Below, piece after piece: positions 44,561-61,959 of a DNA stretch of 64,000 nucleotides; position 1 is the first letter of the stretch; each line of letters opens with the position of its first letter. The notes under the pieces were generated by a model, which was given only the letters and a program-made list of their open reading frames with translations, made no database searches and had not been told where the DNA came from. The position numbers and the translations under genes are program-made. The stretch spans positions 16,616,001 through 16,680,000 of the forward strand of contig OZ076412.1 in assembly GCA_964187785.1 (NCBI GenBank). Direction: 5' to 3'. Origin of the DNA: Amphiscolops sp. MND2022 (Eukaryota).

Positions 44561-46884
44561 GAGTCTCAGAAAATTGTTCATCGTTGATAACAGAGATTTA
44601 TTATTTTTGTTGCTCTGAAATATTTAGAAAAATTAAATTTTATTCTCAAGGGTTCAAACAAGAAGCGTGGCAATACCTATTTTGCGTCCCTATTTGATGT
44701 TTTTGCTCATGTTTCAAATATCTTTAACCGTCAATTTTGTAAAAATTATATCCAATGAAATAAAAGCTTATGTAGTTTTATGTCATGTTATGCTGTTCGA
44801 GATAACTAAATTAAGAAAAAACTTCAGCATTCTGAACATCCTAAAGCAACATACCAGCGTTGTCCTTGCCATGAGAAATGTTGATGATACATATATGTGA
44901 TTGTGTTTGTTGTTCTAACAGCGACACAGGTGCTTGAAACTGGACCTCAACTCTTTGAACCATTTTGGAGCCAAAAACTTTGATTAAAGCCGGACCTAAA
45001 TATATACTCGTTTTAAAAAGTGTCTCCTTTCTTCTCAACTACCAGTCAATTAATTTTTGATGAGGTGGTTCTAAAATCGATACGATTCTATTCAAAAGTA
45101 CAAAACTATTGTACATGTATGTTCATAGCAAGTTTCGTGCTCAGAATTAATTGCTCTCAAAAACATCGATGTAAAAACTATCTCAGACGATACTTCATGA
45201 TTGTATATACACTCCATTTTTAACGTCTCGTCTACAATATTAAACAACGCAATAGTAGTTAGATAGATACTGAATTGTGCTTCATATTGTGAAAATCATG
45301 TGGTTTCGTTAATAGTTCATTATCTAGAACAAATACAAAAACACTCTCAATTTTATTTTTAATTTCAATTTTATCGGATTTTAAATTTGAAATCTGCAAT
45401 TGAGTTATCGAGTTATTTTACAAGCCAGTTTCCATGTCTCAAGGTATTTTTTTTGTTAATCATGAAAGAAAAATCGAAAACGTTTGGGGCAAGTAAAACA
45501 TAACACTCCAATGAAAGACAAACTCTTAACAATACTCTTTGAAAAGCTTGGAGTTTGAAAAATCCCATCAGGCACCGACATAGTAAAGTAAAACTGTTCA
45601 TCCCATGCAGACTCCGCGGAACTAGGGAAACCTTCTTCTGCTTCTACTTAATTTTCGACAATTTTATGCAACTTTAGTTAATAATTTTTGGAATTTTTTA
45701 GATTTCAGTATTCACAGAACCCAACAACTCAAAAAAAAAGAAAAAAATAGACCAAAGTGTTCAAAATCCTCGAACTTCATTAGCTTTTCGACAGTGCGAG
45801 GGTTTTCGACTGCGTTGGAGCCTTAATAAATCGCTGTGGCTGCTATAATTTGGCTCGGAAATATAATTCGACGCCTTGCTAGACAAAACAAATTGTCACT
45901 GATTCGAGTCAGACCGTTTTTGGGCAAAAATTGGTGTTTATGATACTATAGGACAGACCCAGTTTTCCTGTCTAACCCTGGTCGAAGTTGCCGCGAAGTT
46001 TTACATGCACCTTCAAAAAATGCCGGCCAATTTTTTATAAAACATGGAAAATTCAGGGACCATGCCTGAAAAAATTTTGTAAAATTACCAGGCAACTTGG
46101 AAAATGCTGGCAGCATTTCAAGGTGTTTTTAAAAAATTTCCCTGCAACCTATAAAACAATTTTTAAAAAATCCATGTAGTTTTACTCAAAAAACTCGACA
46201 AAAAACTCTGAAAACGACCTTTCAATTTGAACTCAATTCTCATTCTGACGAAGTCTAATTTCTTCATTTCTAATGTTCTTGTAAAAAAATCAATAAGAAT
46301 GAAACTGAATTAAACTCAATCAAAATATACAAAATTGAGTCACAATATACAAAATTATTGGCTCTTTTCTGTCCCAATCTTTTTTCAAGTTAAACTTAAG
46401 TTAGTTTCTAGCCGTAGATTGTACTCCTTTTGATGGATGCTACTGTCATTTTTGTGACTATTAGAAATCAGGTAAAAATAGCAAGAATGTTTAGTACTTG
46501 GAACTATGAGGATATATAAATATACAGATAATTGAACTTTTTTTGAGAAAAGTGTCTTTTCAAAAAGTTCGAAAAAGAGCGCTAGGAAAAATTATGTTTT
46601 TTAACTAATTGAATGCAGAAATAATCGGAATTTTTGTATTCGAAACAAAGTGCTCAAAATACACCAAAAGGTAAAACATTTTTGCAATTTTTGTGCAAGT
46701 TGAGCAAACTTTAGTTGGAAAGAATCTTCGGTGTTTTGTCTACTCTCTAGCCTCGAAAACAAGTTGTTGTTAAAATCTTTTATGGTTTAAAATATCCATG
46801 AGTTGAGAGGGCGTGTTTCTTATAGAAAAAATTGGTTGCATTTCAGGCAACCGAAAAGGCGCGAAATCATCGAAAGCGTCGACC

Positions 46885-47086
46885 ATGTCCGATGATGACA
46901 GTCAGAAAATCATCTCAAGTCTGACCCCTGATCAAATTGCAGAGTTCAAAGAGGCCTTTGACCTTTTCGATGTGAGTGGCAATGGGGCCATCGGCTTTGA
47001 GGAGCTACAGACATGTTTGACCTCCATGGGGTTCTCCCCTGACCCCGCAGAGATCAAAGCTATGATTGACGAAGTCGACGAGTCAG
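46885..47086 (+). CDS. Calmodulin/troponin-C-like EF-hand protein, first coding exon
   Basis: MSDDD..LTPDQIAEFKEAFDLFDVSGNGAIGFEELQTCLTSMGFSPDPAEIKAMIDEVDESG; acceptor TTTCAG at 46846; donor GTCAGT at 47087 inside EF-loop 2, a position that also carries an intron in calmodulin genes. Downstream exons not found. Confidence 0.85.
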
Positions 47087-47457
47087 GTCAGTGGCAAAAT
47101 TTTATCAAAATTCATGCCTAAATTTTATCTGAACATGAATGATTCTTGCAAAATTTTGATGCATTAACCGCTGCACTGTTAAGCATCTTGAATGACGAGA
47201 GAAGTTTAGAATGAATGGATAATTGCTAAAAATCATTTTTGCATGTGTTTGTTGTTCTATTTTAATATCCAGTGAAGTGAAACAATTCTTTAAAAAGTTT
47301 TTACAGTAAGTCTAATTTTGATGTATTTTTCTCCACTCATTTTCTACCAGTTGCCATGATTTGCTTTTTGCCTCAACAAATGAAGAAACCTTTAATGATT
47401 TGCAAAGTTGTACAGTTTCTCATTATGAATTAGTTATCACTTGGAAATCATTACCAA

Positions 47458-48154
47458 TATAGCGGACAGCAAACAGGAAATGAATTTTTTAATACATGTG
47501 AGACTTCATACACGTTACATATACACATCTATATATTGAAAAATATTAACAGCGTTGCTTAATATACATTGTAACAATTGTTGTGCACATTTTACTTTTT
47601 TTAAAATATTTTACAAACAATTATCCAGGCAGTTCCAGGCAGTGTGCATTTTAAAAAAGCCTTGTGGTCGTTTCTAAAAATTCAGCTGCCTTGCAGTAAT
47701 AAATATTTTGTTGAGTCTGATTCAGCTTCCCAATTGTTCAGCCGCCCCCTTATTTCAGCTGCCCCTTATTTAAAGCTGCTCTTATTATTTTATGCGCCCA
47801 ATTCAGCTGCTCCTTTATTAACATTCATCAAAAGCCCCACTCTTACCCAGTGCAGGATTAATTATTTATTCGTTTCTTGCACCTGCAGAAGTATCTTCAG
47901 AAACCGAAAACTATCACAGCCATAACATCATCCATCAAGCCAAATGTAAGTTGCTGTGTGTTACTTAATAATTTTGGTCAGTAAATATCGTTCTTTAAAA
48001 TTGAGTTTTCATTTTCTTATAGACTTTTTTTTGTTCTTTTTTTAGAAATATCCACTAGTCACTTTTAAAAACAAAATATATCCATTTACCCCAACAATCG
48101 CCCTGCGCATCGAAACTTGAAACGAATTCAAATCTAGTAAAAAGCGATTGTTAA
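47458..48154 (+). repeat. 5' LTR (697 bp)
   Basis: Direct repeat of 59355-60051; 2 mismatches seen (GTGTG/GTTTG; AAACTT/AAAGTT). Confidence 0.97.
47946..47951 (+). promoter_or_regulatory. Splice donor GTAAGT in the LTR, preceded by AT
   Basis: Perfect consensus donor: CCAAAT|GTAAGT. Confidence 0.65.
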
Positions 48155-48156
48155 AA

Positions 48157-48174
48157 TGGTGACAAGGGTGGGAT
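48157..48174 (+). promoter_or_regulatory. Primer binding site (18 nt, tRNA-Leu-like 3' end)
   Basis: TGGTGACAAGGGTGGGAT = reverse complement of ATCCCACCCTTGTCACCA; 2 nt after the LTR. The tRNA identity is an inference. Confidence 0.85.
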
Positions 48175-48561
48175 ATTTGTAAAAAGAGAAGTTTTTTTTA
48201 CAAAAAAACAATAAAGTAACTTAGAACCCCCATCAAAACATTCTTAGTCCTAGACCCGATCCAAAAATTTTTTTTGAAATGTGCCATTTCCTGGTTCGCC
48301 AGTGTTGCCCATAAGATTCCCAATCCGGACATGGTCCGTGCCTAGTTTTCCAGCTCAATGCTGTGACTTTCCGCTTCGGCGTGTCTCAGGCTTTAAAATG
48401 GCACATTTGACCCAATGCCCTTAAGTTTTAAGAAGTTACACGGTAAGTGCTTGTCATAAAACAAACAGTAGCCAATTTTTTGTAACATTTCTATCAAAAT
48501 AGTTCCGTTTTCTTTTTGATAACCTAAATTTTATTAACCGCCGCGAGTTTTTTTTGTTGAT

Positions 48562-48831
48562 ATGCCTTGTGCTCACAATACGCATTCTCACCTACCGTTG
48601 TACGTTTTTCCCCAACGACCGCTTCGACCATCAAGTCCTCCGCCCTCTTACAGCGAAACACGTGAAAGACCGATATTCACGCCCTGTTTTTTAAGTTTTC
48701 TACTCTTGATCCTCTGTTTTGCGCTTCTCTTGACCGTTTTAGCCCTTTGTGCGATGTCGTACGAAATCAACAAGATAAATATAACTTGTAAAGCACTTCA
48801 AACCCAAAGAGTGGACTATACGTCTCTGTAG
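48562..48831 (+). CDS. Leader ORF-a, 89 aa, PPxY motif plus single transmembrane segment
   Basis: ATG start; PPPSY; FLSFLLLILCFALLLTVLALCAM; NIT sequon after the TM. Confidence 0.45.
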   Translation: MPCAHNTHSHLPLYVFPQRPLRPSSPPPSYSETRERPIFTPCFLSFLLLILCFALLLTVLALCAMSYEINKINITCKALQTQRVDYTSL

Positions 48832-48841
48832 GAGCGGCCTA

Positions 48842-49240
48842 ATGTATACTTTTAGCATACCTGTTTCCGTTTTGTCAAACACACCGCCTCAAAACTTCGT
48901 TATTCCTTGCTACTTCTGCCAAGTGAAACTTTTCAAAATTCCATTATCGCATCAACCAGAACGTCGTTTTACGGCACATGAACTGTCGATTCATTTGCGT
49001 CTTGAGGCTATCCACAATTGGCAACATCGAAACGTTTGTTCAACTTTCCCGTATGGTCGTGTTGATAACAATGCAAGTGTAAAAGCTTCCTGTGCGTCCT
49101 TTTTCCCTCAATTATCCAATATTTGGGCTTCTCATATTCAATTTCTAGCAATACACGTAACGAATCCATTCTATTTGGTCTATCCCGACTGCAAACCACC
49201 TAGTCTCAATTTTGGTCCGCTGCGAATGGATCGCATGTGA
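48842..49240 (+). CDS. Leader ORF-b, 132 aa, unknown
   Basis: ATG 10 nt after the ORF-a stop; ends just before the gag ATG; Cys/His-containing (CYFC). Confidence 0.35.
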   Translation: MYTFSIPVSVLSNTPPQNFVIPCYFCQVKLFKIPLSHQPERRFTAHELSIHLRLEAIHNWQHRNVCSTFPYGRVDNNASVKASCASFFPQLSNIWASHIQFLAIHVTNPFYLVYPDCKPPSLNFGPLRMDRM

Positions 49241-49281
49241 AACGTTCTAGACCTAACGTAGACTTTAAGCGTTCAAATACA

Positions 49282-50502
49282 ATGAGCACTCAACCAAGCA
49301 CCCCCACAACGGCCACCTCGACAGCGGTAACCAATACCACTACAACCCCAGTTACTAGTGGTGGTGCAAGTAGCTCCCAAGCACCAGCACAAGCACCTAC
49401 CGTGGGTTCTACAACTCCTAACACTAGTACAACCCCAACAGCTTCCTTTTTCACTCTGCCTGGCGGTAGACAAAACCCAACAAGTGTTCCATACATAGCC
49501 CCGCTTCCGTCATGTCTGATGCCAGAGTCTTTCACAGGAAAAGGTGATTTCGAAGATTACCTGCAACAATTTAACACAGCAGCACTTCTCTCAGGCTGGT
49601 ATTCGAACGCACACGATAACAGACCACATTATTTTGCGTTGCGATTGAGAGAAAATGCTTTGCATTTCTACACTACGTTGTCTCCATCACAACAAACTAA
49701 CTTCGATATGCTCGTTGACGCGTTCCGCCAGAATTACACAACTAATGGCGATATTCTGAAAGCAAGATTGAAAGCCGCGAAGCAGCAACCCAACCAAGAT
49801 ATTTCATCTTTCCTATGTGACGTTCGGACGCTGGCGCGTCGTGCATATCGAGATCATCCTGCTATGATTGATCCGGTAGTTCTGACGTGCTTCATTGAAG
49901 GGTTAAGCGACAAAACGCTTCGATGGGAGCTCCGAAAAGCCAAGCTAGCCACAGCGGATGATGCTTTGTCCTTGGCTATGGAGCTGAATTCGTTCCTGGA
50001 GATTGAGAACGGAAACCCCCAAGCCGCTCAAACAGTTAACCGAGTTAGTACTTCTTCTGAAGCGGAGCCATCAGCGTCCAAAATTATGGCTGATTTTGTT
50101 CGATCATTACAAACTGAACTTCAGTCGTCAACGTATCGGTCCAATAATGATTTCCATCAACGAGGAGACACAAAATCATCAAACAGAAATGATCACTCGA
50201 GATCGCAGAGTAATGATTCCAATCGGAGTGGCCAGTCAGTACGATTTCAGTCGTCACAAGGACGCGAACGACCAAATAACGCAGGCAGATCTGACAAAAC
50301 ACAAAAACAACAGTATCGCCAAGATTCCCCCCATCCCAAGAAACAAGGCAACAATAACAACACGCAAAACAATCGGAAGCCGTGCGAGCGTTGCACACGC
50401 AAAAATCATACAACGAAGGAGTGCAAAGCTTGTTTCAATTGTTTGAGAGTCGGTCATTTCCAGAATGAATGCAAGGCTCCCAAAAGGGAACATTTAAACT
50501 AG
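49282..50502 (+). CDS. gag: Gag with capsid-like core and two CCHC zinc knuckles
   Basis: PESFTGKGDFEDYLQQF..W; CERCTRKNHTTKEC and CFNCLRVGHFQNEC; first ATG at 49282. Confidence 0.95.
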   Translation: MSTQPSTPTTATSTAVTNTTTTPVTSGGASSSQAPAQAPTVGSTTPNTSTTPTASFFTLPGGRQNPTSVPYIAPLPSCLMPESFTGKGDFEDYLQQFNTAALLSGWYSNAHDNRPHYFALRLRENALHFYTTLSPSQQTNFDMLVDAFRQNYTTNGDILKARLKAAKQQPNQDISSFLCDVRTLARRAYRDHPAMIDPVVLTCFIEGLSDKTLRWELRKAKLATADDALSLAMELNSFLEIENGNPQAAQTVNRVSTSSEAEPSASKIMADFVRSLQTELQSSTYRSNNDFHQRGDTKSSNRNDHSRSQSNDSNRSGQSVRFQSSQGRERPNNAGRSDKTQKQQYRQDSPHPKKQGNNNNTQNNRKPCERCTRKNHTTKECKACFNCLRVGHFQNECKAPKREHLN

Positions 50503-53500
50503 AAATGTCTACGCTAGCGGGTCAGAGCGCAGACAAGACCACAAACCGAGGCCCGCAAATTCAGACTCTTAACTCTGTGGTGGATCACAGAAGTGTATTC
50601 GTCCAATTATCCATTTTTAATACGGTGATTGAGGCTGTGTGTGATAGTGGAGCAAGTGTGTCTTGCCTGAGTTCTGATGCATTTGGGAAATTGAAGAACG
50701 GGAAGAAATTAGAGCTAAACCCGTCAGACACGAAGCTAGTAGCAGCCAACAAACAACCTATAGTAACACGCGGCATTGTGCAACTACCTTTGCAAATCGG
50801 TCCGAGACATTACGAACATTCGTTTCACGTTCTGGAGCAAGCAGAAACTGACTGTCTACTCGGCTTAGACTTCCTCAAAACTCATAAATGCGACCCGTTG
50901 TTTTCCCAAGATATTCTGCGTCTGGATGAAAAGACGACAGTCCCCCTGTATCATCGTCAGCTCACAGATGCTAAGACAACTGTGTTCAGGGTGGTGGTGT
51001 CCGAGACAGTTTCGGTACCACCACGACATACAATGATTGTGCCAGCGCACATCAAGGATTGGAAACGCCCATTGAATGAGGGTGTAGCAATTTTCGAGCC
51101 GCACGAACGGTTCGATGGCTCAAAAGAAGCAGTGGCACCAAGTATTTTGTTCAACTTTGCTGAGGAAAACATCCCGGTGACGATCGAAAATTCTGGAGAA
51201 GAGCCACTGATCTTGTATGAGAAAACAACTTTGGGTACTTCAGAAGCAATCCCTGATTTACCCATACAAAACGTTGTAACCGAAACAAAAAGCTTGAAGT
51301 CTAAAATAGACGAAAAGGACGAATCGTACGATTTGAAAAATGTAGTGGATGGAGTTGATCCGGAAATTCCATTCAAAACAAAACAGAAATTCGCAGAACT
51401 TGTTTACGAATTCGAAGATGTGTTTTCGCAAAACCAATGGGACATTCGTCGTTGCGAAGCTACAACACACAAAATAAACGTATACCCCGGATCAAAGCCG
51501 ATTAAAATTCCGAATCGCAGAATGCCCCTCCACTATAAACAGGATCTCCAAGAGAAATTAGACGCGTTCCTGGACAAGAGGTTAATAGCTCCTTGTCACA
51601 GCCCTTACAGTGCACCCGCCATGCTAGTCCCGAAGAAAAACGGAAAACTCCGCCTCGTCATTGACTACAGACAATTGAATAGTCAAACAATCAAGTCTTG
51701 TTGGCCAATCCCTTCGATTGAAGAAATTTTTGACACTCTAGATGGAAGTTCAGTCTTTTCCACTATAGACATGAGTTGGGGATTTTATCAGCTGCCCTTA
51801 GACGAATCAAGTCAAGATTATACTGCTTTCAGCACACCTTTTGGTTCCTTCAAATGGCTTGTAATGCCGATGGGACTCACAAACAGTCCACCGACGTTCC
51901 AAAATTTAATGGAAATCGTTTTGGCGAAACTTATCTGGAAAACAACAGTCCCCTACCTTGACGATTGTATCATCTTTGCCGCTTCCCCGGAGGAACACTT
52001 AGAACGAGTCAGGGAAGTTCTAGGCAGATTTAGACAAGCCAACTTGAAAATAAACCCCCTAAAATGCGAGTTTTTCCGCACCAAAGTCCACTTCTTGGGC
52101 CATGTCATCAGCAAAGAAGGCCTTCAAGTTGATCCCACAAAAATTGCAGCCGTTAAAGAGTTTCCGGTCCCAATTAACCAGACCCAGGTGAAGTCATTCT
52201 TGGGCCTTTGTTCCTACTATAGACGTTACATCAAAAATTTCGCTGAAATCGCTCGTCCCTTGCATAAAGCGAGTGAAACCAACTCGCCTTTTAAGTGGAC
52301 AACTGAGGCAGAGCAAGCGTTTGAAGATCTAAAAGCACGACTCCTCACAACACCAATTTTAGCCTTTCCAACAATGGAAGATCCTTTCATCCTCTACACG
52401 GATGCCAGCCAACTAGCAATGGGAGCCGTTCTAGCCCAAGTACAAAATGGCCAGGAACGTGCTATTTGCTATGCATCAAAGGCATTCTCCAAATCCCAAT
52501 CAAAGTACTCAGCGACGAAACGAGAACTTCTCGCAATGGTCCATTTCACTCGGTACTTCCGACATTACCTACTCGGTAGAAAATTCAAAATTGTCACAGA
52601 CCACAGTGCACTTCGCTGGTTACACAATTTCAAGGACCCCGACGGTCTCATTGCACGTTGGATTGAAAAACTAGCAGCTTTTGATTACGAAGTGCAACAT
52701 AGACCAGGCAAATCCATCGGACATGCCGACAGTCTGTCCAGAATACCAACTGAATCCGTCCAATTAACGCAAGAATGCCGAACAGGAGTCCCAGGTGCAA
52801 CAAAGACGAAGAATTGCAACAATGACGAGGAATGGCCCAACGCACAATCTAACTACAGTATTCACCTATTGCCTAGAGATACAGCATCAATACCACTCCA
52901 AGCTATCATTGAACTCAAGGAAAAAGCTAATAATCACAGCAAAGTTAAAACCGGCGAACTTCTCGAACACGAGCAACCACAAGAAAAGCCTCTACAAGAA
53001 GAACTAGTCATTACAGAAACAGGCATTGTCAAGAATCGCGAGGTGAAGGGCGATTTGTTCAGTTCTTCGGAGTCCCTAGCTCACTGTATCTCAGCTGATT
53101 TTAAAATGAGTTCTGGAATAGCCCGATCATTCAAAAGGAAGTTCCCAGCACAGTATCCAGAGGACTTATCAAAGCAAACTGTGCCACTTTGGGTACAACC
53201 ATTACCTGGTGACGGCCGTTTCCTGTATCACTTGCTGACTAAGGAACGTTACTACCAAAAGCCAACATATACTTCGCTTCGAGCTTCTCTGGAACACATG
53301 CGTAGCCATGCTGAAACGAACGACGTCCTAAAGATTAGTATGCCTCAAATAGGCTGTGGAAATGATAAACTTGACTGGGATTTGGTTCGCAGACTCATCC
53401 GAGAAGTCTTTGACGGATCCAATGTATGTATAACTATTTATTTGCCTCCATCAATTTCACTTGAGAGCGAAGGCCCACCCGTAGAAACCGCTAAAGATAA

Positions 53501-55409
53501 TGAACCAGTGCATGCGGACATTGATGTCCGCAATGCTCAAGATGAGGACGAGGCCCTGAAGATCGTAAAAGAATGGGTTCGCAGGGGTCGTGTGCCGCGG
53601 AATAACGACCTACAAGGAAGTCCCGAGTTAGCATGGAAGCTGTACAATCAATTCCACAGTTTATATCTGGCCAATGACGTCCTTTGTCGACGGTATGAAC
53701 CAGTTGGAAGTGAACTTCCGTACCTACAGCAAATTGTTCCCCGTACCTTGGTAGAACATATCCTAACAAACTTGCACTCTTCCGCTACCAGTGGACATCT
53801 AGGTTTAGCCAAGGTGATGGAGAAAGTTCGACAGCGTTTTTGGTGGCCTGGTTTCAAAGAGGATATCAAGCTTTTCATAAAACGTTGTTCCGAATGTCAG
53901 CGACGCTCGGATCCTCCTAAAACACATCGTCATTCCCTTGTAGAGTGGAAAGCTAGTTATCCCTTTCACCACATTGGAATCGATTTCATGGGCCCATTGC
54001 CGGCCTCGAATGGAAACAAAGTAATTCTGTTGATCGGGGATCATTTCACAAAATGGTATGAAGCAATTCCCTTGCCAGATCAGCAAGCTACAACAACGGC
54101 TACCGCTCTTATCGAACATTGGATCTGTCGATTTGGTTGTCCCTACAGCATACATAGTGATCAAGGACGTAATTTTGAGTCCAAGTTGTTCCAGACGCTC
54201 ATGACAAGCCTTCACATTGACAAAACAAGAACAACTGCTTTTAGGCCCCAGTCTAATGCAGTGATCGAGCGAATGAATCGAACAATCCAGAACATGCTAG
54301 CAAAATGCGTAAACGCTGAACAAAGTAACTGGTCCCAACAGTTACCCTACGTAATGATGGCCTACCGGTCATCTGTACATGAATCAACCGGATATTCGCC
54401 TCAATTTCTTGTTCATGGGCGAGAAATTTCCTTGCCAATCGATTTGATGCACCCTGCACCTGAAGCCGAAAAACCAATGTCGCCTACGGATTTTGTATAC
54501 AATCGAAAATTGGCCTTCCAAAGAGCTTTCGAACTAGTGCGAGCCAACATTAATAAAAACCAAAAACGTCGCAACGCCATTTACAACGAGAAGATCCATG
54601 GTCCTACCTACGAACAGGGACAGAAAGTGTTGCTCCACACACCAGTGGTCCCAGTTGGCCAAACAACCAAGTTCCACAACCCATGGCGTGGTCCATATGT
54701 GATACTTGACTGTTTCAATGAGGTCACATACAAGATAAGAGAATTGTCTACGTCCAAAGAGCTGATCGTTCACTACGATAGGTTGAAACCTTTTTGCGAA
54801 AAACCAGCTACTTCAAATGTGCCTACTGGAAATACTAGCTTAACCCAGCCCACAAAACCAGTTCACTCCAATGTCCCAACACGGAATAACGACTTGAACA
54901 CCACACCACCTGAAACCTCGCATCGATGCTGCATGCATTTTCAACAGCCACCACTGCAGCCTATGAATCTCCACAGCCCTGCTCACCTAAACCACCAGAC
55001 TACTCCAACGCCACAATCAACTAGCCACAATGCTCAGTCACCGACCCAAACCCGAACTCCCGCTTTCCTCTCCGGTAATCAGCATTCCCAATCTTTTCAA
55101 TCTCCTGGCGTTCAGACGATGGCCACTCCCGCAACTCCTTCAGTCGACAACCCTAGTTATCGTCAAGCACCAGCATCCCATTCACCTTTGTCAAACGAAT
55201 CCCGAAACATCGTTGAAAACGCTGCTGTTCAGTTTCGAGATATGATAAACAGACCATACAATCTCCGCGCAAGTACACGCACACAGCGATTGGCGGAACC
55301 CCTGTGTAATTCCTCAATACCTTCTGAACTAACCGATTTCAACTCGCCGCCACTGCACAGCATGCCACATTCCACCAAACGTTCCAAAAACTATACAAAA
55401 AAGAAATAA
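50469..55409 (+). CDS. pol: Pol: protease, dUTPase-like remnant, RT, RNase H, macrodomain, integrase
   Basis: CDSGAS; YLDD; YTDASQLAMGAVL; GDLF..LAHCISADF..LLTKE..MPQIGCGND; H..H..CSEC, IDFMGP, HSDQG, IERMNRT, WRGPY. 1646 codons with no stop. The dUTPase-like call (VPPRHTMIV region) is weak. Confidence 0.97.
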   Translation: MQGSQKGTFKLEMSTLAGQSADKTTNRGPQIQTLNSVVDHRSVFVQLSIFNTVIEAVCDSGASVSCLSSDAFGKLKNGKKLELNPSDTKLVAANKQPIVTRGIVQLPLQIGPRHYEHSFHVLEQAETDCLLGLDFLKTHKCDPLFSQDILRLDEKTTVPLYHRQLTDAKTTVFRVVVSETVSVPPRHTMIVPAHIKDWKRPLNEGVAIFEPHERFDGSKEAVAPSILFNFAEENIPVTIENSGEEPLILYEKTTLGTSEAIPDLPIQNVVTETKSLKSKIDEKDESYDLKNVVDGVDPEIPFKTKQKFAELVYEFEDVFSQNQWDIRRCEATTHKINVYPGSKPIKIPNRRMPLHYKQDLQEKLDAFLDKRLIAPCHSPYSAPAMLVPKKNGKLRLVIDYRQLNSQTIKSCWPIPSIEEIFDTLDGSSVFSTIDMSWGFYQLPLDESSQDYTAFSTPFGSFKWLVMPMGLTNSPPTFQNLMEIVLAKLIWKTTVPYLDDCIIFAASPEEHLERVREVLGRFRQANLKINPLKCEFFRTKVHFLGHVISKEGLQVDPTKIAAVKEFPVPINQTQVKSFLGLCSYYRRYIKNFAEIARPLHKASETNSPFKWTTEAEQAFEDLKARLLTTPILAFPTMEDPFILYTDASQLAMGAVLAQVQNGQERAICYASKAFSKSQSKYSATKRELLAMVHFTRYFRHYLLGRKFKIVTDHSALRWLHNFKDPDGLIARWIEKLAAFDYEVQHRPGKSIGHADSLSRIPTESVQLTQECRTGVPGATKTKNCNNDEEWPNAQSNYSIHLLPRDTASIPLQAIIELKEKANNHSKVKTGELLEHEQPQEKPLQEELVITETGIVKNREVKGDLFSSSESLAHCISADFKMSSGIARSFKRKFPAQYPEDLSKQTVPLWVQPLPGDGRFLYHLLTKERYYQKPTYTSLRASLEHMRSHAETNDVLKISMPQIGCGNDKLDWDLVRRLIREVFDGSNVCITIYLPPSISLESEGPPVETAKDNEPVHADIDVRNAQDEDEALKIVKEWVRRGRVPRNNDLQGSPELAWKLYNQFHSLYLANDVLCRRYEPVGSELPYLQQIVPRTLVEHILTNLHSSATSGHLGLAKVMEKVRQRFWWPGFKEDIKLFIKRCSECQRRSDPPKTHRHSLVEWKASYPFHHIGIDFMGPLPASNGNKVILLIGDHFTKWYEAIPLPDQQATTTATALIEHWICRFGCPYSIHSDQGRNFESKLFQTLMTSLHIDKTRTTAFRPQSNAVIERMNRTIQNMLAKCVNAEQSNWSQQLPYVMMAYRSSVHESTGYSPQFLVHGREISLPIDLMHPAPEAEKPMSPTDFVYNRKLAFQRAFELVRANINKNQKRRNAIYNEKIHGPTYEQGQKVLLHTPVVPVGQTTKFHNPWRGPYVILDCFNEVTYKIRELSTSKELIVHYDRLKPFCEKPATSNVPTGNTSLTQPTKPVHSNVPTRNNDLNTTPPETSHRCCMHFQQPPLQPMNLHSPAHLNHQTTPTPQSTSHNAQSPTQTRTPAFLSGNQHSQSFQSPGVQTMATPATPSVDNPSYRQAPASHSPLSNESRNIVENAAVQFRDMINRPYNLRASTRTQRLAEPLCNSSIPSELTDFNSPPLHSMPHSTKRSKNYTKKK
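50493..50540 (+). promoter_or_regulatory. -1 ribosomal frameshift signal
   Basis: T TTA AAC heptamer directly before the gag TAG; pol is in the -1 frame; stem GTCTACGCT/AGCGCAGAC begins 7 nt downstream. Confidence 0.85.
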
Positions 55410-55489
55410 CTTCAAATAGTTGCATTTTATTTCTCTCTCCAGGTCATTTCCCATCACCAATGGCCTAACAAGGCTCCTCTGTTTTTCAG

Positions 55490-57836
55490 GATTTCCTACT
55501 TTCCAAACTCTCAACATTTCTGGTTTCTCTTTCTGTTCGTCCGTTGGTCGGTCCTGATCTTTGCGGATGTGCAGTTCACAACACACCTCAACGATGACCT
55601 GGAAAAACCCGTATTCAAGAAAGGTGCAGCGTTTGTGTTCAAATACCAAGCTGTTACCTCGGAGAGCGAAAGCAAAGTCCGCGTGTTCTCTCCCTTCCCC
55701 AAGATGCCTCTAATCAACATTACCAATGCCATTAACATGATCAATGCCTTCCAGACAGCCCCTCGAAGCATCGGAGGTATGTACATCAATACAAACTGCA
55801 AGTTTACAGACGTTAATGACACCTATGACCTCCTCCTGCAACAACTTGTGACAAGAGTCAATTTCCTGCAAACAGAGTTGGCAGCAGCTCAACAAGAGGA
55901 AGACACTCTTCTGGAAGTTGTGAATTCTTTCATTCCACCAGCTGTTAGACAATCTGATGACATCGCACGACCACGTCGAGCAATTGCCGCTATTGCTGCA
56001 ATCGCAGCAGGTGCCGGAATGGTCTTGGGTGAACCAATCAAAGACGCCGCTTGTAGTGCGCTTTCTATATTTAACCTCTGTCACACCAATGAAGATCTGA
56101 GTCGCGACGTGGAACGCATAATGAGCACACAGCAAGAAATTGTTGATACACTGCAGCGTGTTCAAACTCGAAACGACAAGAATTTCTTCCTTCTAGGAAA
56201 CGAGATTAAACAGACCCAGGAAAGTGTCCAGAAACTAAAAGAAAGTGTCGGTCTCCGCTTCCAACAAATGGAGTTTTACCTAGTTAATGCTACTCGCTAC
56301 TTGGCTGCGACTAGCCTTGAGTGTGATAGAGTGATTATTCGTCACCTTAGCCTTCAGCAATTCTTGCGAAATTACGTCTATCAGCTAGGGACACTTTACA
56401 CTCATCTCAAGTCGTACCGTGCAGCGTTTTACGCTTACCGCATTTCGCTCTACTCCACCATTTCCTCGTTAGCTAGTGGCTACATCACACCTCAGTTTCT
56501 TCTGCCTCAACAAGTGGCGCAAATTGTCAAAGACTTAGCAGATGACGAAGTAAAGCGAGGCACCAAACTGTCCCCAGCTATTCGACCTGGTTTTGAGGCA
56601 ATATACTATGAGATACAATTAGTACTCGAAGTAACTTTGATACCACGTGGTATATCTGTCATTCTTGGGATCCCAATGAATTCAAAGTCGTCGACGTTTG
56701 ACATTTACCATGCCACGCCTCTGTATCAGCCCAACAATGACCAGAAGACTGCGTCGCTCTTCAATTTTGCGAACCCTTTTTTGGCCGTATCTACTGACAA
56801 TAGTAGATTTGCAGAACTCGGTGCTAATACGCTGCAGCAATGTTCGGGTAACAATCGTATCAAATTATGTAGAAAAGGCTTCTCGACAACAACCGATGAA
56901 ACTCTTCTTTGCTTAGGATCCTTGTTCTATAACTACGATGTTCCCGCCTTACGCAATTGCGAAGTCCGCGCAGTACTTTTACCCGACGCTCCTCAGGCAT
57001 TTTATTTGGCGGATGGAATGTACCACGTCATATCGCGGTCTCCCACCCTCAAATTCAAAAACGATAGCCAAATTGACGGCCTTTCTATCTCTACTATCAC
57101 CTGTCAGGCGTGTGTCATACGCCCTAGCTGTTCGAGTACACTGTCTTTCAACCAGGGTGAACTGGTTCTTCACCCTGACATGGATTTTTGTGAGACCCGA
57201 CCGGAGCCTTTTCTTGCGTCGATTGAGCTGACACCGTCTTTGAATCAAGTCTTCGCGCATGTACCCGCCATTGGTAGCGCCGAATTTCAGGCATATTCTA
57301 CTAGTGAAGCTCGTCAGTCAGTTCTTGGCAGTCTACGAATGGAACTAGCCGAACTACCTGACGTCCAACACATGTCGCCGGAGACTCTAGATCAACTGAC
57401 AGAGCCAATCGCTAAGTATTATTCTTCGATCTCGCCGGCCACATCAGCGGCTTTACAGTCATATTTACCCACCCGTACTGCTTTTTTACTTTCGTCATTG
57501 TCCATTACAATGTCTATTTTAACATTTTCTATAAGTTTTACTTTGTTTAGACGTCATTGGCAGCGTCTTTTTACCAATCCTCAACGCTTTTTCCGGGCTA
57601 CTTCCGGTAGATTCATTAATATAGTCGAATCAATTACCGCGGAGTATGATTTGACCAATTCTCCATTTTTGTATTTGACGGACGCTGAATTCCGCGCACT
57701 GATTTTGCTGGCTCGCGAAACCATTCGTCAAGCTGAACCGAAACCATCTAATTACACTGCACCCAACGCCCCTACACTTCCACCACGTGTTTATCCTAAT
57801 ATTAGTGCGCCTACTTATGAGTCTACTTCGACATGA
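55490..57836 (+). CDS. env: Env, class I F-type fusion glycoprotein (predicted 782 aa after splicing)
   Basis: Signal-like HFWFLFLFVRWSVLIFA; furin site RPRR (55968-55979) then AIAAIAAIAAGAGMVLG; heptad region; ITPQFLLP motif; Cys-rich ectodomain; TM AFLLSSLSITMSILTFSISFTLF; tail with YPNI. Confidence 0.9.
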
Positions 57837-57908
57837 TTTAATTGCTTAGCACATTTCTGTCTCACTGTCAATTTCAGCTTCTTTATCAACTACTTAGGAT
57901 TTCCCTTC

Positions 57909-58195
57909 CTAGATGCTTTCCTACGCAGCTAGTGCCTGTTTTACACGTTTCCGTGTTCCGTTACTTTCCCTTAGGTTGTCTTTTCCTTCCTAGTTGCTTC
58001 ACTACGCAACTAGCGCCTGTATTGATACACGTTTCCGTGGTGAATCTCTTTTCGCTAAGCTGTCTTTTTCTCCTAGTTGCTTCGCTACGCAACTAGTGCC
58101 TCACAACACACGTTTCCGTGTCCGCAATTAAGTTTTTTCCTAATTGTTTAAACAATTAGTGTCTAGCAGATGCGTTTCCGCATCCTAAGTAGGAT
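57909..58195 (+). repeat. Three ~82-bp tandem units with embedded hairpins plus a 20-bp palindrome
   Basis: CTAGTTGC-N8-GCAACTAG at 57990 and 58073 (variant at 57909); CACG-TTTC-CGTG in each unit; CTAATTGTTTAAACAATTAG at 58140-58159. Confidence 0.85.
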
Positions 58196-58242
58196 TTCCG
58201 TACAAAGTGTAATCGGTGCAATCAGTTTTTTTGTTGTTTCAG

Positions 58243-59314
58243 GTTCCAGTTTCCAGCAGCTCCAGTTCCAGCGCCCTCCCTCCTCAGCAGCGGTCGCGTG
58301 CAGCCTCTGGCAGAGGGATATGTAGTCCGCTTGTTGGACAAAGACGATTATCGTATCAAGAGAATAAACCCCGCTACACAAACTGTTGTGCTACAAAAAA
58401 TTAATTCAAGTAATCGTTGCTTTGCTCGACCAGCTACGGAAATCTGGCTTCCTCCTCCAAGCAGTAACAGCCTGAGCGTGGAAGTGGACTGCCCTCCCCC
58501 TCCAGCAATCTGTGATTGCTCGCCAGTACCCCCTAAATTAATAGTGGACACCTGCGATGTAGCAGTGGATGCGTCCCTCGACGCTGACGACAGCATGGAA
58601 CTCTTAGTATCAGAGTTTTCTTCGGTTGGCGAACTCAATAAGGGTTTTGAAGAAGCCCGTGCAGCAGCTAATAAGGCTCGCATCGAGTGTGAGCATACGT
58701 TCGACCTCCTTTGCGAGGAAATGACTCTTCGGAAGGCAAAGGAAAAGGAAATTCATGAAGCAAAAATCGAGCTCGCTGGTTTACAAACCAACATTGCTTC
58801 TCAAGTCGTCGCCCTCGCCAAAAAAGACAGTGAAATAGCCGCCCTGAAGAAGCGCCTCAGTGCCCTCAGCGACGAAAACAGCTCTTTGCTGCAACACAGT
58901 CTCCAGCAAAGCGAAGAACTCTCTAACCTTAAACTAGCCGCCAACAGGGTTTCAGATGCCCATCTAACCACTGACATGCTAATTTATCAACTTTCCACAT
59001 ATACTCCTGAACTCGATTTCGCAGATGAGAACATATTCTTTGATATACTTGGCCTACCACCCACCGCCGATGTCGAAAAGATCAATCGTCATGCTAGACA
59101 TCTTTTAAGACTCGTACACCCCGACAAGAACCCTTCCATCCCAGCCGAAGTGTCCCAACTGGTCCCCTGCCTTAAGGAAGCGAAAAACGTCCTCACGGAT
59201 CCCCGGCTCAACAAAGTATACCAGTGTTGCGGTATGACAGGTGTTCGCCGGGCCCGTCGTAACTTACGGACCTGCATGGATTGTGACTCCCACATGTCGG
59301 ACTGGTTCGAGTAA
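58243..59314 (+). CDS. ORF4: coiled-coil plus J-domain (DnaJ-like) protein with Cys-rich tail (predicted 357 aa after splicing)
   Basis: FFDILGLPPTADVEKINRHARHLLRLVHPDKNP..LKEAKNVLTDPRLNKVY; heptad-rich middle; CC..CMDC tail; acceptor TTTTTGTTGTTTCAG at 58242. Confidence 0.88.
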
Positions 59315-59340
59315 TTTGGCTGGCGGGGACGCAGCCTTTC

Positions 59341-59350
59341 ACGGGGGAGG
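59341..59350 (+). promoter_or_regulatory. Polypurine tract
   Basis: ACGGGGGAGG, 4 nt before the 3' LTR. Confidence 0.8.
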
Positions 59351-59354
59351 TTAG

Positions 59355-60051
59355 TATAGCGGACAGCAAACAGGAAATGAATTTTTTAATACATGTGAGA
59401 CTTCATACACGTTACATATACACATCTATATATTGAAAAATATTAACAGCGTTGCTTAATATACATTGTAACAATTGTTGTGCACATTTTACTTTTTTTA
59501 AAATATTTTACAAACAATTATCCAGGCAGTTCCAGGCAGTGTGCATTTTAAAAAAGCCTTGTGGTCGTTTCTAAAAATTCAGCTGCCTTGCAGTAATAAA
59601 TATTTTGTTGAGTCTGATTCAGCTTCCCAATTGTTCAGCCGCCCCCTTATTTCAGCTGCCCCTTATTTAAAGCTGCTCTTATTATTTTATGCGCCCAATT
59701 CAGCTGCTCCTTTATTAACATTCATCAAAAGCCCCACTCTTACCCAGTGCAGGATTAATTATTTATTCGTTTCTTGCACCTGCAGAAGTATCTTCAGAAA
59801 CCGAAAACTATCACAGCCATAACATCATCCATCAAGCCAAATGTAAGTTGCTGTTTGTTACTTAATAATTTTGGTCAGTAAATATCGTTCTTTAAAATTG
59901 AGTTTTCATTTTCTTATAGACTTTTTTTTGTTCTTTTTTTAGAAATATCCACTAGTCACTTTTAAAAACAAAATATATCCATTTACCCCAACAATCGCCC
60001 TGCGCATCGAAAGTTGAAACGAATTCAAATCTAGTAAAAAGCGATTGTTAA
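59355..60051 (+). repeat. 3' LTR (697 bp)
   Basis: Near-identical to 47458-48154; followed by TSD ACCAA. Confidence 0.97.
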
Positions 60052-60084
60052 ACCAAACTTAGCTTCTGCTCAAAGTTCAATCCA

Positions 60085-60793
60085 TTATTTTCTTCGGATA
60101 CTATCGTTTCTGGCAGCATTTACGAAATCAACCAGTTTTATAACCAAAAAGATTAGCATTGATATAAATATCAGACTCAGTAGCATAAGCTTAACGTCAA
60201 CCACAGTCCGTTTTGCTTTCTCAGAAGCTCCGTTAACTGGTATAGTTTGTAATGGCAACGATAATTGCATGTCATTCCACCAAAAACATGCGTTTGGCGG
60301 GTACCCCATTTTCTTGAACAGCTCATATGGATCAGCCCCTCCTGCGTTGTACTTCAAAATTTCCAGCACATCTGTTTCTCGCACAAATTTTGGACAATCC
60401 GGAAGCTGGTTTCTAAGTTCGTCCAGCTGGAAAAAATAATCAGCCAATTTTAGCTGGTAAGATTTGACGTCTTTATCACCCGCAAACCATTGGGGTCCCT
60501 TGTACAATAAATCATGTCCCCAGTTACTCCACATATCTGTATAAGGGGTTCCAATTTGCAATTCAATCATTTTATTGCCGACCGATTCTTTTACAAGCAA
60601 GATCAGATGAATGCGTCTGTATCCAATCTCTGTGTATTTGCCGGCTCCGGGACACATTCCATAGCATTTGGTAGTATTGACCTCAAAGTGGGCTGAGTCA
60701 TTTGAAACCAAGTCTTTCAGTCTCAGCGCTTCGTCAACTGTTTGACACGTCAGCCTCATACCAATAATGTCAGTTAAATCCGTCAGTCGCACG
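60085..60793 (-). CDS. Terminal exon of a RelA/SpoT (p)ppGpp-synthetase-domain protein with C-terminal membrane anchor
   Basis: DIIGMRLTC, GYRRIHLIL, IELQIGT, MWSNWGHDLLYKG in canonical order; TTTCAG acceptor at 60799-60794; hydrophobic LMLLSLIFISMLIFLVIKLV near the C-terminus. Confidence 0.85.
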
Positions 60794-61959
60794 CTGAAAC
60801 ATAATCACTATAGATAACGTTGTAACTTGAAAGTGACCCACGCCAATTTTTCTAAACTTCTGTCAATCAAAAGCTAGTTTCATTTGATACTTCAAACTTT
60901 TTTTTAATTTTTCGAAGAAGTAAATTTCCGAATAAATTGTCAATAGATCCGCATCAGAACTATTACTAAAACTCCTGATGGACTGGCTGCCAAATATAGA
61001 ATGAAGCTTTCATGCATCTTGTGAAAAGTCGGATACTCAAAGGAAATATAAATGACTGAAATTTTCCGTGAACGTTTCGTACAATCATTATAAAAGCAAC
61101 AGGCAACCTTCAAAAACGTGTTTTTGTATTAATTCGGATGAAAAGCTACAGCGGAGAACTATATAGATAGAAAGCAATTCATCTGCAATTGTATTTTCTC
61201 AATTTCTTCGAAGCACTTAAAAAAGTTTTTATAAAGTGATTGTACTCAGCATTTTGGTACCTTTGGTAAAAGAAGGTCAGGTCAACTTCAAGTCTTTCAT
61301 AAGTCGTACAACAAGAAATGACCAATGATGCAACTTTCGAATTTGAAAAAGAATTTTTACACTGGAAACAATCACGAGACTTGAGTTAGAACTTTATGTT
61401 CCAAAGAAGTCGCATACCCTTGCACACAAAGGTGAAACTCGTTTATTGAACTGAAAGTAATTCAAAGGGGACCCTTTAGTGTTTTTTCGAACTTTGTAAG
61501 CATAGAAAATATTTATTTTAGCACGGGACTTGAACCCACGTGCATGCAGTGGAACTAACTCACCAATGTGAGAAGTCCGCGTTATCAGCTAGTTCAAGTG
61601 GAAACTTTCCACCAGTGCTTCTAGTAAGGATTGGCTGAAACTGGGGAGAAAAAGGTGGAAAAATGTTCCAGTAATAAAACTGAAGGAAAACTATAAATCA
61701 CAACATTGGTTGTAGCTGATTATGATTCTGTAATTCAGATATATTTAATCGATTTGACCCACTAGATATTAATGTGTGACTGTTATACGATGGTTCCCTT
61801 TCGAATGAATAAAAAATTGAACAGCCAATAGAAATTGTTTTGTAACAACATCATGTTGTAATATAGAAAATATAGAAAAAAATATAGAAATAACAATGTA
61901 ACGCTGACGAAACGCAAATGCAAAAACAAACCTTAAAAAAACACATTTGACTGCAATTA

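Follow-up and report, generated by a model that had tools for sequence, protein, structure and literature searches.

In Drosophila gypsy and the springer subclade, the env start codon is assembled by splicing an AU at the donor to a G at the acceptor, according to the available text of two reports (PMC2585583; 10.1101/2023.08.03.551782), and the accessible part of a third gives the Springer donor as GTAAGT (PMC13097621). The text available places these donors beyond the LTR (at a distance of 43 nt in Springer; "in the gag region" in gypsy) and reports that they serve env. We analysed an element at 47458-60052 of the window, the whole 64,000-nucleotide stretch of Amphiscolops sp. MND2022 DNA, in which all features below are on the + strand. 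By sequence and conservation, a donor-side AT and an acceptor-side G match the frame of its env. It resembles gypsy and springer, as far as their available descriptions go, in the split AU/G env start, the F-type env and the furin site. In contrast to theirs, its donor falls within the LTR itself, at 210 nt from its end and upstream of the primer-binding site (PBS), and two genes are predicted to use it. The element thus appears to work like gypsy and springer without being classed as a member. The sequence-only reading of this locus cited the spliced leader of gypsy env as precedent, and understated it, because gypsy and springer use the same AU/G split.

In foamy viruses one donor serves several acceptors, and we know of no split start codon among them. 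They share with the window element a major splice donor inside the LTR, and hence at both ends, as described in the accessible text of PMC3694450. However, foamy viruses belong to the Retroviridae rather than to Ty3/gypsy, and their donor lies upstream of the poly(A) signal, whereas here it lies seemingly downstream. The Oikopleura Tor elements are also env-bearing LTR elements of a marine invertebrate, and Tor3a splices env from LTR-initiated RNA; unlike the window element, Tor3a has non-canonical donors close to where gag begins, and Tor3b/4b rely on an internal promoter, according to the part of PMC4402516 available. The "Ancient errantiviruses" (non-insect Ty3/gypsy; PMC13524379) share gag-pol-env between LTRs, an F-type env and multicopy intact elements. 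A term search of the main text and seven supplements of that paper found neither "splic" nor "DnaJ", and by this search ORF-b and ORF4 of the window element are extra to its description.

The window element is a young, intact, env-bearing Ty3/gypsy element. Its 698-bp 5′ LTR (47458-48155, termini TATA...TAAA) differs from the 3′ LTR (59355-60052) at 2/698 bases, and the 4-bp target-site duplication CCAA (47454-47457 and 60053-60056) is consistent with 7/8 paired close copies. The PBS begins 1 nt past the LTR (48157-48174; TGGTGACA(A/G)G(A/G)GTG in most sibling groups) and is presumably tRNA-Leu-like, and a polypurine tract precedes the 3′ LTR (59343-59354). As expected of Ty3/gypsy, gag (49282-50502, Retrotrans_gag and zinc knuckle by profile) is followed by pol in the order PR-RT-RH-IN (50469-55409; protease, RT, RNase H and integrase by profile), which also gave a weak macro-domain match below cut-off. 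The gag/pol overlap contains TTTAAAC (50493-50499), a heptamer that we assign to the slippery motif class and that would support a −1 frameshift. A candidate poly(A) signal, AATAAA (47698-47703), lies 246 nt upstream of the donor; in groups A-E similar hexamers precede the donor by 76-254 nt, and several E and F copies lack them. Imperfect repeats of ~80 nt occupy the env-ORF4 spacer (57942-58071).

The donor, CCAAAT/GTAAGT (slashes mark junctions; AT/GTAAGT at 47944-47951, with AT at 47944-47945 and GT at 47946), is predicted to supply the first two bases of a start codon, and a second copy is carried by the 3′ LTR at 59837-59848. The donor, acceptor and branch-like motifs named in the sequence-only reading were all present, and the unspliced donor bases read ATG-TAA, as it had claimed. 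The donor was intact in 30/30 close LTR loci, and AT/GT[AT]AGT was present in 23/28 loci spanning six LTR groups, at a position that precedes the LTR end by 190-260 nt in every group (in A-E, −194 to −257 relative to the PBS; in F, a comparable place in the 3′ LTRs); single LTRs of five older copies carried a mutated donor. The donor flanks of the six groups resembled each other no better than shuffled sequence does (identity 0.43-0.59, shuffled baseline 0.50), and the base preceding AT varied among A, T, C and G, whereas AT itself was fixed. Since AT precedes only 1 of 38 GT[AT]AGT sites in the rest of the window, finding such an AT at a matching LTR position in all six diverged groups exceeds chance expectation. 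In 11 LTRs from the six groups, the 100 nt before the donor contained 2 ATGs versus 12.0 expected, a count as low as in none of 300 shuffles. An ATG at 47792 of the window copy opens a 9-codon uORF, which would fall within exon 1 if transcription starts upstream. An SL-RNA-like reading of the donor region was dropped because the Sm-site-like AATTTTGG downstream of the donor was not conserved in other groups.

The env acceptor, TTTTTCAG/G, with the branch-like CTAAC found at 55465 as claimed (55465-55490), places CAG/G at 55489/55490 and opens a 781-codon frame. Its first Met is codon 72, in agreement with the reported lack of an ATG near the 5′ end. The env exon (55490-57836) encodes a hydrophobic leader (residues 1-25), a furin-like RPRR site at 160 and a fusion-peptide-like stretch; a hydrophobic stretch near residues 665-690, considered as a C-terminal transmembrane anchor, contains no 11-residue window with a hydropathy above 2.0. 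The proposed 26-aa signal peptide was assessed from its hydropathy alone, which peaks at 2.15 over residues 13-23. Env had no Pfam or PDB match of its own, the PDB sequence search giving one chance match, but two of the five env relatives scanned (P0064 and P0065, 48% and 47% identical) exceeded the Baculo_F cut-off. Env, which follows pol, is F-type as judged by these relatives, as in errantiviruses in the broad sense. Searching the genome with four outside env proteins revealed no additional families.

Across the sibling groups, the best AG before env was in phase in 20/24 rows, followed by G in 12 and by A in 8. In all eight A-type rows an in-frame ATG follows at codon 4-6. A single clade of the A-type groups B and E was rejected (p-AU 0.00011), indicating that the acceptor G was lost twice; group C retains the G although it has its own ATG. 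Upstream of Met72, env codons 26-71 showed dN/dS of 0.04-0.16 in 10 of the 11 comparisons giving a ratio, the eleventh, with a frameshifted copy, reaching 0.34. The phase-matched acceptor, the selection upstream of the first Met and the loss of G only alongside an own ATG all argue for the proposed split ATG of env. The strong rival acceptor noted earlier (CAG/G at 55442/55443, within 55440-55443) is real, and it opens 37 codons out of frame with env. Only close copies have it, several older siblings carrying a dead version, and it would compete with the env acceptor in the subfamily of the window element.

The ORF4 acceptor, TTGTTTCAG/G (58232-58243), places CAG/G at 58242/58243 and opens 356 codons (58243-59314), with the first Met at codon 118; the absence of an ATG near the 5′ end was therefore read correctly here too. 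The best-scoring AG near the ORF4 N-terminus was YAG/G in the required phase in 24/33 rows, at least one per group, so that a phase-matched YAG/G precedes ORF4 in all six groups. Taken together, the nine remaining rows and the four env rows out of phase were mostly frameshifted or decayed; in one locus with an open 356-codon frame (L151) the phase-matched TAG/G ranked second by 0.1, and in another with LTRs 98.9% alike (L157) both acceptor and frame were lost. Codons 1-117, upstream of the first Met, gave dN/dS of 0.035-0.22 in five close comparisons. Purifying dN/dS in these codons, as in env codons 26-71, indicates that they are translated, and together with the phase-matched YAG/G in all groups points to a split ATG for ORF4, as had been proposed.

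The ORF4 product would comprise a small beta region (residues about 22-63), a coiled coil (114-234), a J domain with HPD (265-326) and a Cys-rich tail. It matched PF00226 (DnaJ) at 40.6 bits (cut-off 27.8), HPD was found in 12/20 loci with at least one per group, and the top fold matches were all J domains (best E 6.6e-4). By profile and fold match, ORF4 is a J-domain protein of the DnaJ/Hsp40 co-chaperone type, which probably recruits host Hsp70. A viral example of a J domain is the polyomavirus T antigen. ORF4 differs from known J proteins in that its J domain lies near the C-terminus, after the beta region and the long coiled coil, and is encoded by an LTR retroelement. The literature searched (titles and abstract openings) described no J-domain protein in any LTR element, and the extra ORF3 types of bdelloid elements given in the available text of PMC5408684 (GDSL, DEDDy, CC and TM) include no J domain. 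Against a split start, the protein calls of one outside family (the P0011 cluster), from contigs of 10-12 kb, give the ORF4 N-terminus a Met. A metagenome scan with P0011 found nothing, an Atlas search gave no usable match for ORF4 or ORF-b, and viral contigs scanned with the ORF4 alignment yielded two weak loci matching the J region.

The sequence-only interpretation thus held for env and ORF4 in the sibling-family comparison and was not supported for ORF-b, for which it had tentatively suggested a spliced start at a weak TAG/G (48831/48832, within 48829-48832), a site that opens 135 codons. It had omitted an in-frame ATG four codons later, at 48842, which is conserved in all six groups, whereas the TAG/G is present in close copies only. 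ORF-b from its own ATG (48842-49240) encodes 132 aa containing Cys/His and has no Pfam match. The sibling comparison revealed no conserved acceptor before ORF-b or gag.

Acceptor strength was ranked by an ad hoc T-rich score devised for this analysis. On this score the env and ORF4 acceptors (9.4 each) surpassed every other CAG site from the donor to the 3′ LTR, and the only higher value of any kind went to a U5 TAG/A at 48045 (9.8) that is not conserved; in groups B and C, among about 260-280 AG sites, both acceptors ranked below sixth place. A G following AG also belongs to the ordinary acceptor consensus. Among the best candidates listed (42, 77 and 40 matches), no spliced genomic copy started at an acceptor or ended at the donor, and an internally deleted copy (L190) extends from inside pol as far as the ORF4 end, not between the predicted splice sites.

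Taken together, the invariant donor AT, the phase-matched acceptors, the purifying selection and the loss of G only with an own ATG make it very likely, on comparative sequence grounds, that env and ORF4 obtain split start codons by splicing from one LTR donor. Transcription would begin in the 5′ LTR, upstream of a donor presumably located in U5, and a short first exon would end in AT at 47945. Splicing from 47945 to 55490 would add G and create an ATG in frame with env, supplying the signal peptide, and splicing from 47945 to 58243 would do the same for ORF4. Unspliced genomic RNA would retain the PBS and start neither protein, ORF-b and gag would start at their own ATGs, and the 3′ genes would be expressed as in a complex retrovirus. 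We hold this scheme as a whole, including Hsp70 recruitment by the coiled-coil/J-domain protein, with good confidence.

One alternative, which we hold very improbable, keeps the acceptors and changes the upstream exon to one ending at a second leader donor or to a short peptide exon as in ZAM/Beagle, the ZAM-type arrangement being described in the accessible part of 10.1101/2023.08.03.551782. Groups A, B, D, E and F do share a donor-like site in the leader, 234-321 nt past the PBS (G/GTAAGT, 48443-48448, in the window copy). Yet the acceptors require two upstream bases, and the LTR donor alone gives phase 2 throughout: the leader site has no conserved upstream ATG phase, its nearest open ATG being in phase 1 in A, 0 in B and H, and 2 only in F, and absent in D, E, G and T. 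Just as improbable is an origin of env and ORF4 RNAs from internal promoters or host spliced-leader trans-splicing, with non-AUG or downstream starts, which would work for env in groups B, C and E with its own ATG. The flatworm leader ends in AUG, and such a leader would be one base out of frame at both acceptors. Internal env promoters are documented in Oikopleura Tor3b/4b in the text available (PMC4402516), and in one invertebrate 30% of genes receive a trans-spliced leader, although the leader given in the accessible part of that report (10.1101/2022.08.27.505549) ends in AGA and forms no ATG with the env and ORF4 acceptors. This origin would leave the invariant LTR AT/GT and the phase lock unexplained, and upstream of ORF4 neither a Met nor an open frame is conserved, stops occurring at −3 to −31 codons.

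We consider it still more doubtful that the LTR motif is kept for another role (U1 control of LTR polyadenylation, or a DNA-binding site) and fits an ATG by coincidence. U1 pairing favours AG, not AT, ahead of GT, whereas here AT is fixed though its neighbours vary, and the G at the acceptor goes with the lack of an own ATG. An LTR-located donor does control polyadenylation in foamy viruses, according to the available text of PMC3694450, and by analogy such control may be a second role of the donor here. Read-through of the pol stop, in frame with and abutting env in the window copy (55409/55410) and in close copies, was rejected as the least credible route, because the pol-env frame relation is not conserved (groups B and C have the stop in another frame than env, and extra in-frame stops intervene in D, E and F); the signal peptide would end up inside the product, and ORF4 would be left without an explanation.

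Returning to splicing from the LTR donor, the AU/G split for env was already known from Drosophila gypsy and springer; the donor inside the LTR and its predicted service to ORF4 are new, placing the split start outside insects and extending it to a second gene on comparative evidence. This raises the question of whether the split start is ancestral to env-bearing Ty3/gypsy elements or convergent. We lean towards viewing the element as a Ty3/gypsy lineage with complex-retrovirus-like control, in which one LTR donor carrying two-thirds of a start codon acts as a joint switch for Env and an Hsp70 co-chaperone. If so, genomic RNA would make neither Env nor ORF4, host control of one splice event would silence both, and ORF4 would represent a type of accessory chaperone gene undescribed for LTR retrotransposons in the literature searched. 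The conserved J-domain gene suggests host Hsp70 recruitment by elements, as in some true viruses, and the sibling families provide a natural experiment in which gaining a downstream ATG frees the splice-site G. ORF-based annotation truncates proteins of the env/ORF4 type, as in the database entries P0013 and P0001, whose called starts lie 26 and 19 residues too far downstream, and it may therefore systematically overlook signal peptides and accessory genes in non-insect errantiviruses.

The complete LTR retroelement at 47458-60052, an env-bearing Ty3/gypsy element with the gene order ORF-b, gag, pol, env, ORF4, carries 698-bp LTRs differing at 2 positions between the 5′ and 3′ copies, a 4-bp flanking target duplication, a PBS at 48157 and a polypurine tract at 59343. 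Its pol contains PR, RT, RH, a weak macro match and IN, and its LTR termini read TATA...TAAA rather than TG...CA. In the host genome (1.07-Gb assembly, an animal), at least 16 LTRs reach ≥98% identity, and matches came to 42 overall (the best 40 of 78 candidates were scored). The sequence-only reading had proposed that the AT of an LTR splice donor (47944-47945) is joined to an acceptor-side G to make the ATG of env (55490), of ORF4 (58243) and possibly of ORF-b, and every motif and frame it named was present. No processed (spliced) genomic copies were seen among the matches listed, and the case rests on comparison with sibling loci. Protein searches of the genome reached siblings down to about 50% (Env) and 25-30% (ORF4) identity, and about twenty of these, hand-picked to span the identity range, were compared in their 5′ and 3′ regions. 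A conserved donor, phase-matched acceptors and selection ahead of the first Met supported the proposal for two genes, and the start codons of env and ORF4 are very probably built by splicing from the LTR donor.

Of 28 loci examined, 23 have the donor AT↓GT(A/T)AGT, which occurs a single time in an LTR, some 190-260 nt ahead of the LTR end, and is represented in all six LTR groups (A-F, A being the element's own); between the groups the donor surroundings aligned no better than shuffled DNA (0.43-0.59 vs 0.50). The donor was intact in 30/30 close LTR loci. Two of the five exceptions (L105, L173) had a mutated site and three (L112, L174, L183) no alignable LTR there; three more older copies had the donor mutated in a single LTR. 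As background, AT precedes 1 of the 38 other GT(A/T)AGT sites in the window. All four nucleotides occur ahead of the AT across groups, and the unspliced site gives ATG-TAA or ATG-TTA depending on the group, so the conserved feature is neither an extended motif nor a start-stop. In 11 partly non-independent LTRs, the 100 nt upstream of the donor contained 2 ATGs vs 12.0 expected; the leader downstream was also ATG-poor (14 vs 24), and far U3 was close to expectation (29 vs 38.5), a pattern that would fit a first exon that is not translated. In groups A-E the hexamer AATAAA, which several copies of E and F lack, stands 76-254 nt ahead of the donor; should it be the poly(A) signal, U5 would contain the donor and the TSS would have to lie upstream of the donor. 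A second, recurring donor-like site at 48443, with equivalents in L147, L158, L160, L164 and L166 and no acceptor found for it, could shorten the uORF-rich leader, which has 8 ATGs before ORF-b and 14 before gag.

The ORF4 frame that follows the G at 58243 is 356 codons long and has no Met before codon 118, and no conserved frame or Met was found upstream of ORF4 in the siblings compared. Ranking the AG sites around the ORF4 N-terminus by our own ad hoc T-rich acceptor score put YAG↓G first, in the phase that requires two bases from upstream, for 24 of 33 rows, representing all six groups. The nine misses were mostly decayed or frameshifted copies, but two speak against the reading: in L151 the phase-matched site ranked second, and L157, a fairly young copy, had lost both acceptor and frame. 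Purifying selection acts on codons 1-117 (dN/dS 0.035-0.22 across five close pairs; pN far under pS in distant pairs), and a small beta region, predicted with modest confidence at residues 22-63, lies entirely ahead of Met118. Many database relatives, available as proteins only, repeat a start of F-R followed by conserved sequence, the translation of T-rich CAG G. ORF4 has a J domain over the Pfam cut-off, with the HPD motif in 12/20 loci and fold matches of the structure model that were J domains throughout; it may be an Hsp70 co-chaperone that serves the assembly or uncoating of capsids, or the folding of Env or Pol. In the decayed siblings L173, L180, L174 and L183, either ORF4 alone or the env end together with ORF4 is repeated in tandem, with three copies in L173 and L180.

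Translation of Env by read-through from pol was rejected, the arrangement not being conserved among siblings. The decoy acceptor at 55442 was CAG↓G in the youngest copies only and dead in L047 and L049-L051. From the G at 55490, env is open for 781 codons, the earliest Met being codon 72. The top-scoring AG had the required phase for 20 of 24 rows, with an acceptor-side G in 12 and A in 8. In the G-type groups A, D and F no Met preceded codon 72-95, except for one decayed copy with Met15, and one copy had an immediate stop; group C kept the G and had a Met at codon 5. The A-type rows, groups B (with R) and E, carried an ATG at codon 4-6 in 8/8. The tree, rooted at its midpoint only, placed B sister to A and E sister to C, and a single B + E clade was rejected (p-AU 0.00011; 14 rows, short and long-branch rows left out). 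The simplest reading of these alignments would be an ancestral split start, a downstream ATG gained twice and the G then lost twice; the AT donor would be kept in groups without the env G because ORF4 still depends on it. In Env, residues 1-25 are variable and hydrophobic, and among the better-preserved rows residues 26-71 show 72-89% identity from group to group; the former would be a predicted signal peptide, in line with the one proposed for spliced Env, and the latter the mature N-terminus. Env has an RPRR site and a fusion-peptide-like stretch and, by its relatives, is assigned to the F type. Related env families (the P0011/P0016/P0202 protein clusters; P0042, P0047, P0019, P0036) have up to 188 members and are absent from the host genome, where the best matches to outside env proteins were 50-68%, so the clade is present in other assemblies; in one outside family, relatives of env, ORF4 and ORF-b sit on contigs of equal lengths.

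For ORF-b the frame and acceptor motif stood, but its in-frame ATG at 48842 had been overlooked. Homology begins at this Met, conserved across groups A-F and also in five of the database relatives; the TAG↓G at 48831 occurs in close copies only, and eight ATGs lie upstream of ORF-b. A split start here is, on this comparison, unneeded and unsupported. ORF-b itself (48842-49240), a gene of 130 aa ahead of gag with a PC(Y/F)xCQV motif, is conserved and occurs in all six groups; it is also represented among database sequences by 8 proteins, and no family match was found.

A start codon made by splicing AT to G is described for Drosophila melanogaster gypsy (PMC2585583), and env spliced onto an AU dinucleotide for the springer subclade (10.1101/2023.08.03.551782), with the Springer donor given as 43 nt downstream of the LTR (PMC13097621). 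The split start is thus already known there, whereas here the donor is LTR-internal, reminiscent of foamy viruses (PMC3694450), and is predicted to serve a second target gene. The accessible text and 7 supplements of a metazoan errantivirus survey (PMC13524379) mention neither splicing nor DnaJ, and the open-access literature searched, including the available part of a rotifer paper (PMC5408684), yielded no J-domain ORF in an LTR element. The weight of the finding lies in the shared LTR donor, the repeated G loss and ATG gain and the J-domain accessory gene more than in the split codon itself.

Pol residues about 880-990 (nt about 53100-53440) form a macro-domain-like insert that separates RNase H from integrase (Pfam Macro, E 0.005, under cut-off). 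Oriented like the element and 370 nt upstream of it is a calmodulin-like EF-hand exon (46836-47093, +), bounded by the acceptor TTTCAG↓G and donor-like G↓GTCAGT; the element may have inserted in an intron of this gene, and the exon suggests that host splice signals resemble the element's. An open frame at 60085-60804 (-) ends 33 nt from the 3′ LTR and matches Pfam RelA_SpoT (40.1 bits, cut-off 27), with a hydrophobic C-terminus; an animal genome is an unexpected place for it. By recognition, 1-44000 holds many decayed Ty3/gypsy and BEL/Pao-like fragments, and 61951-64000 (+), at the right end, an endonuclease/RT frame of LINE type.
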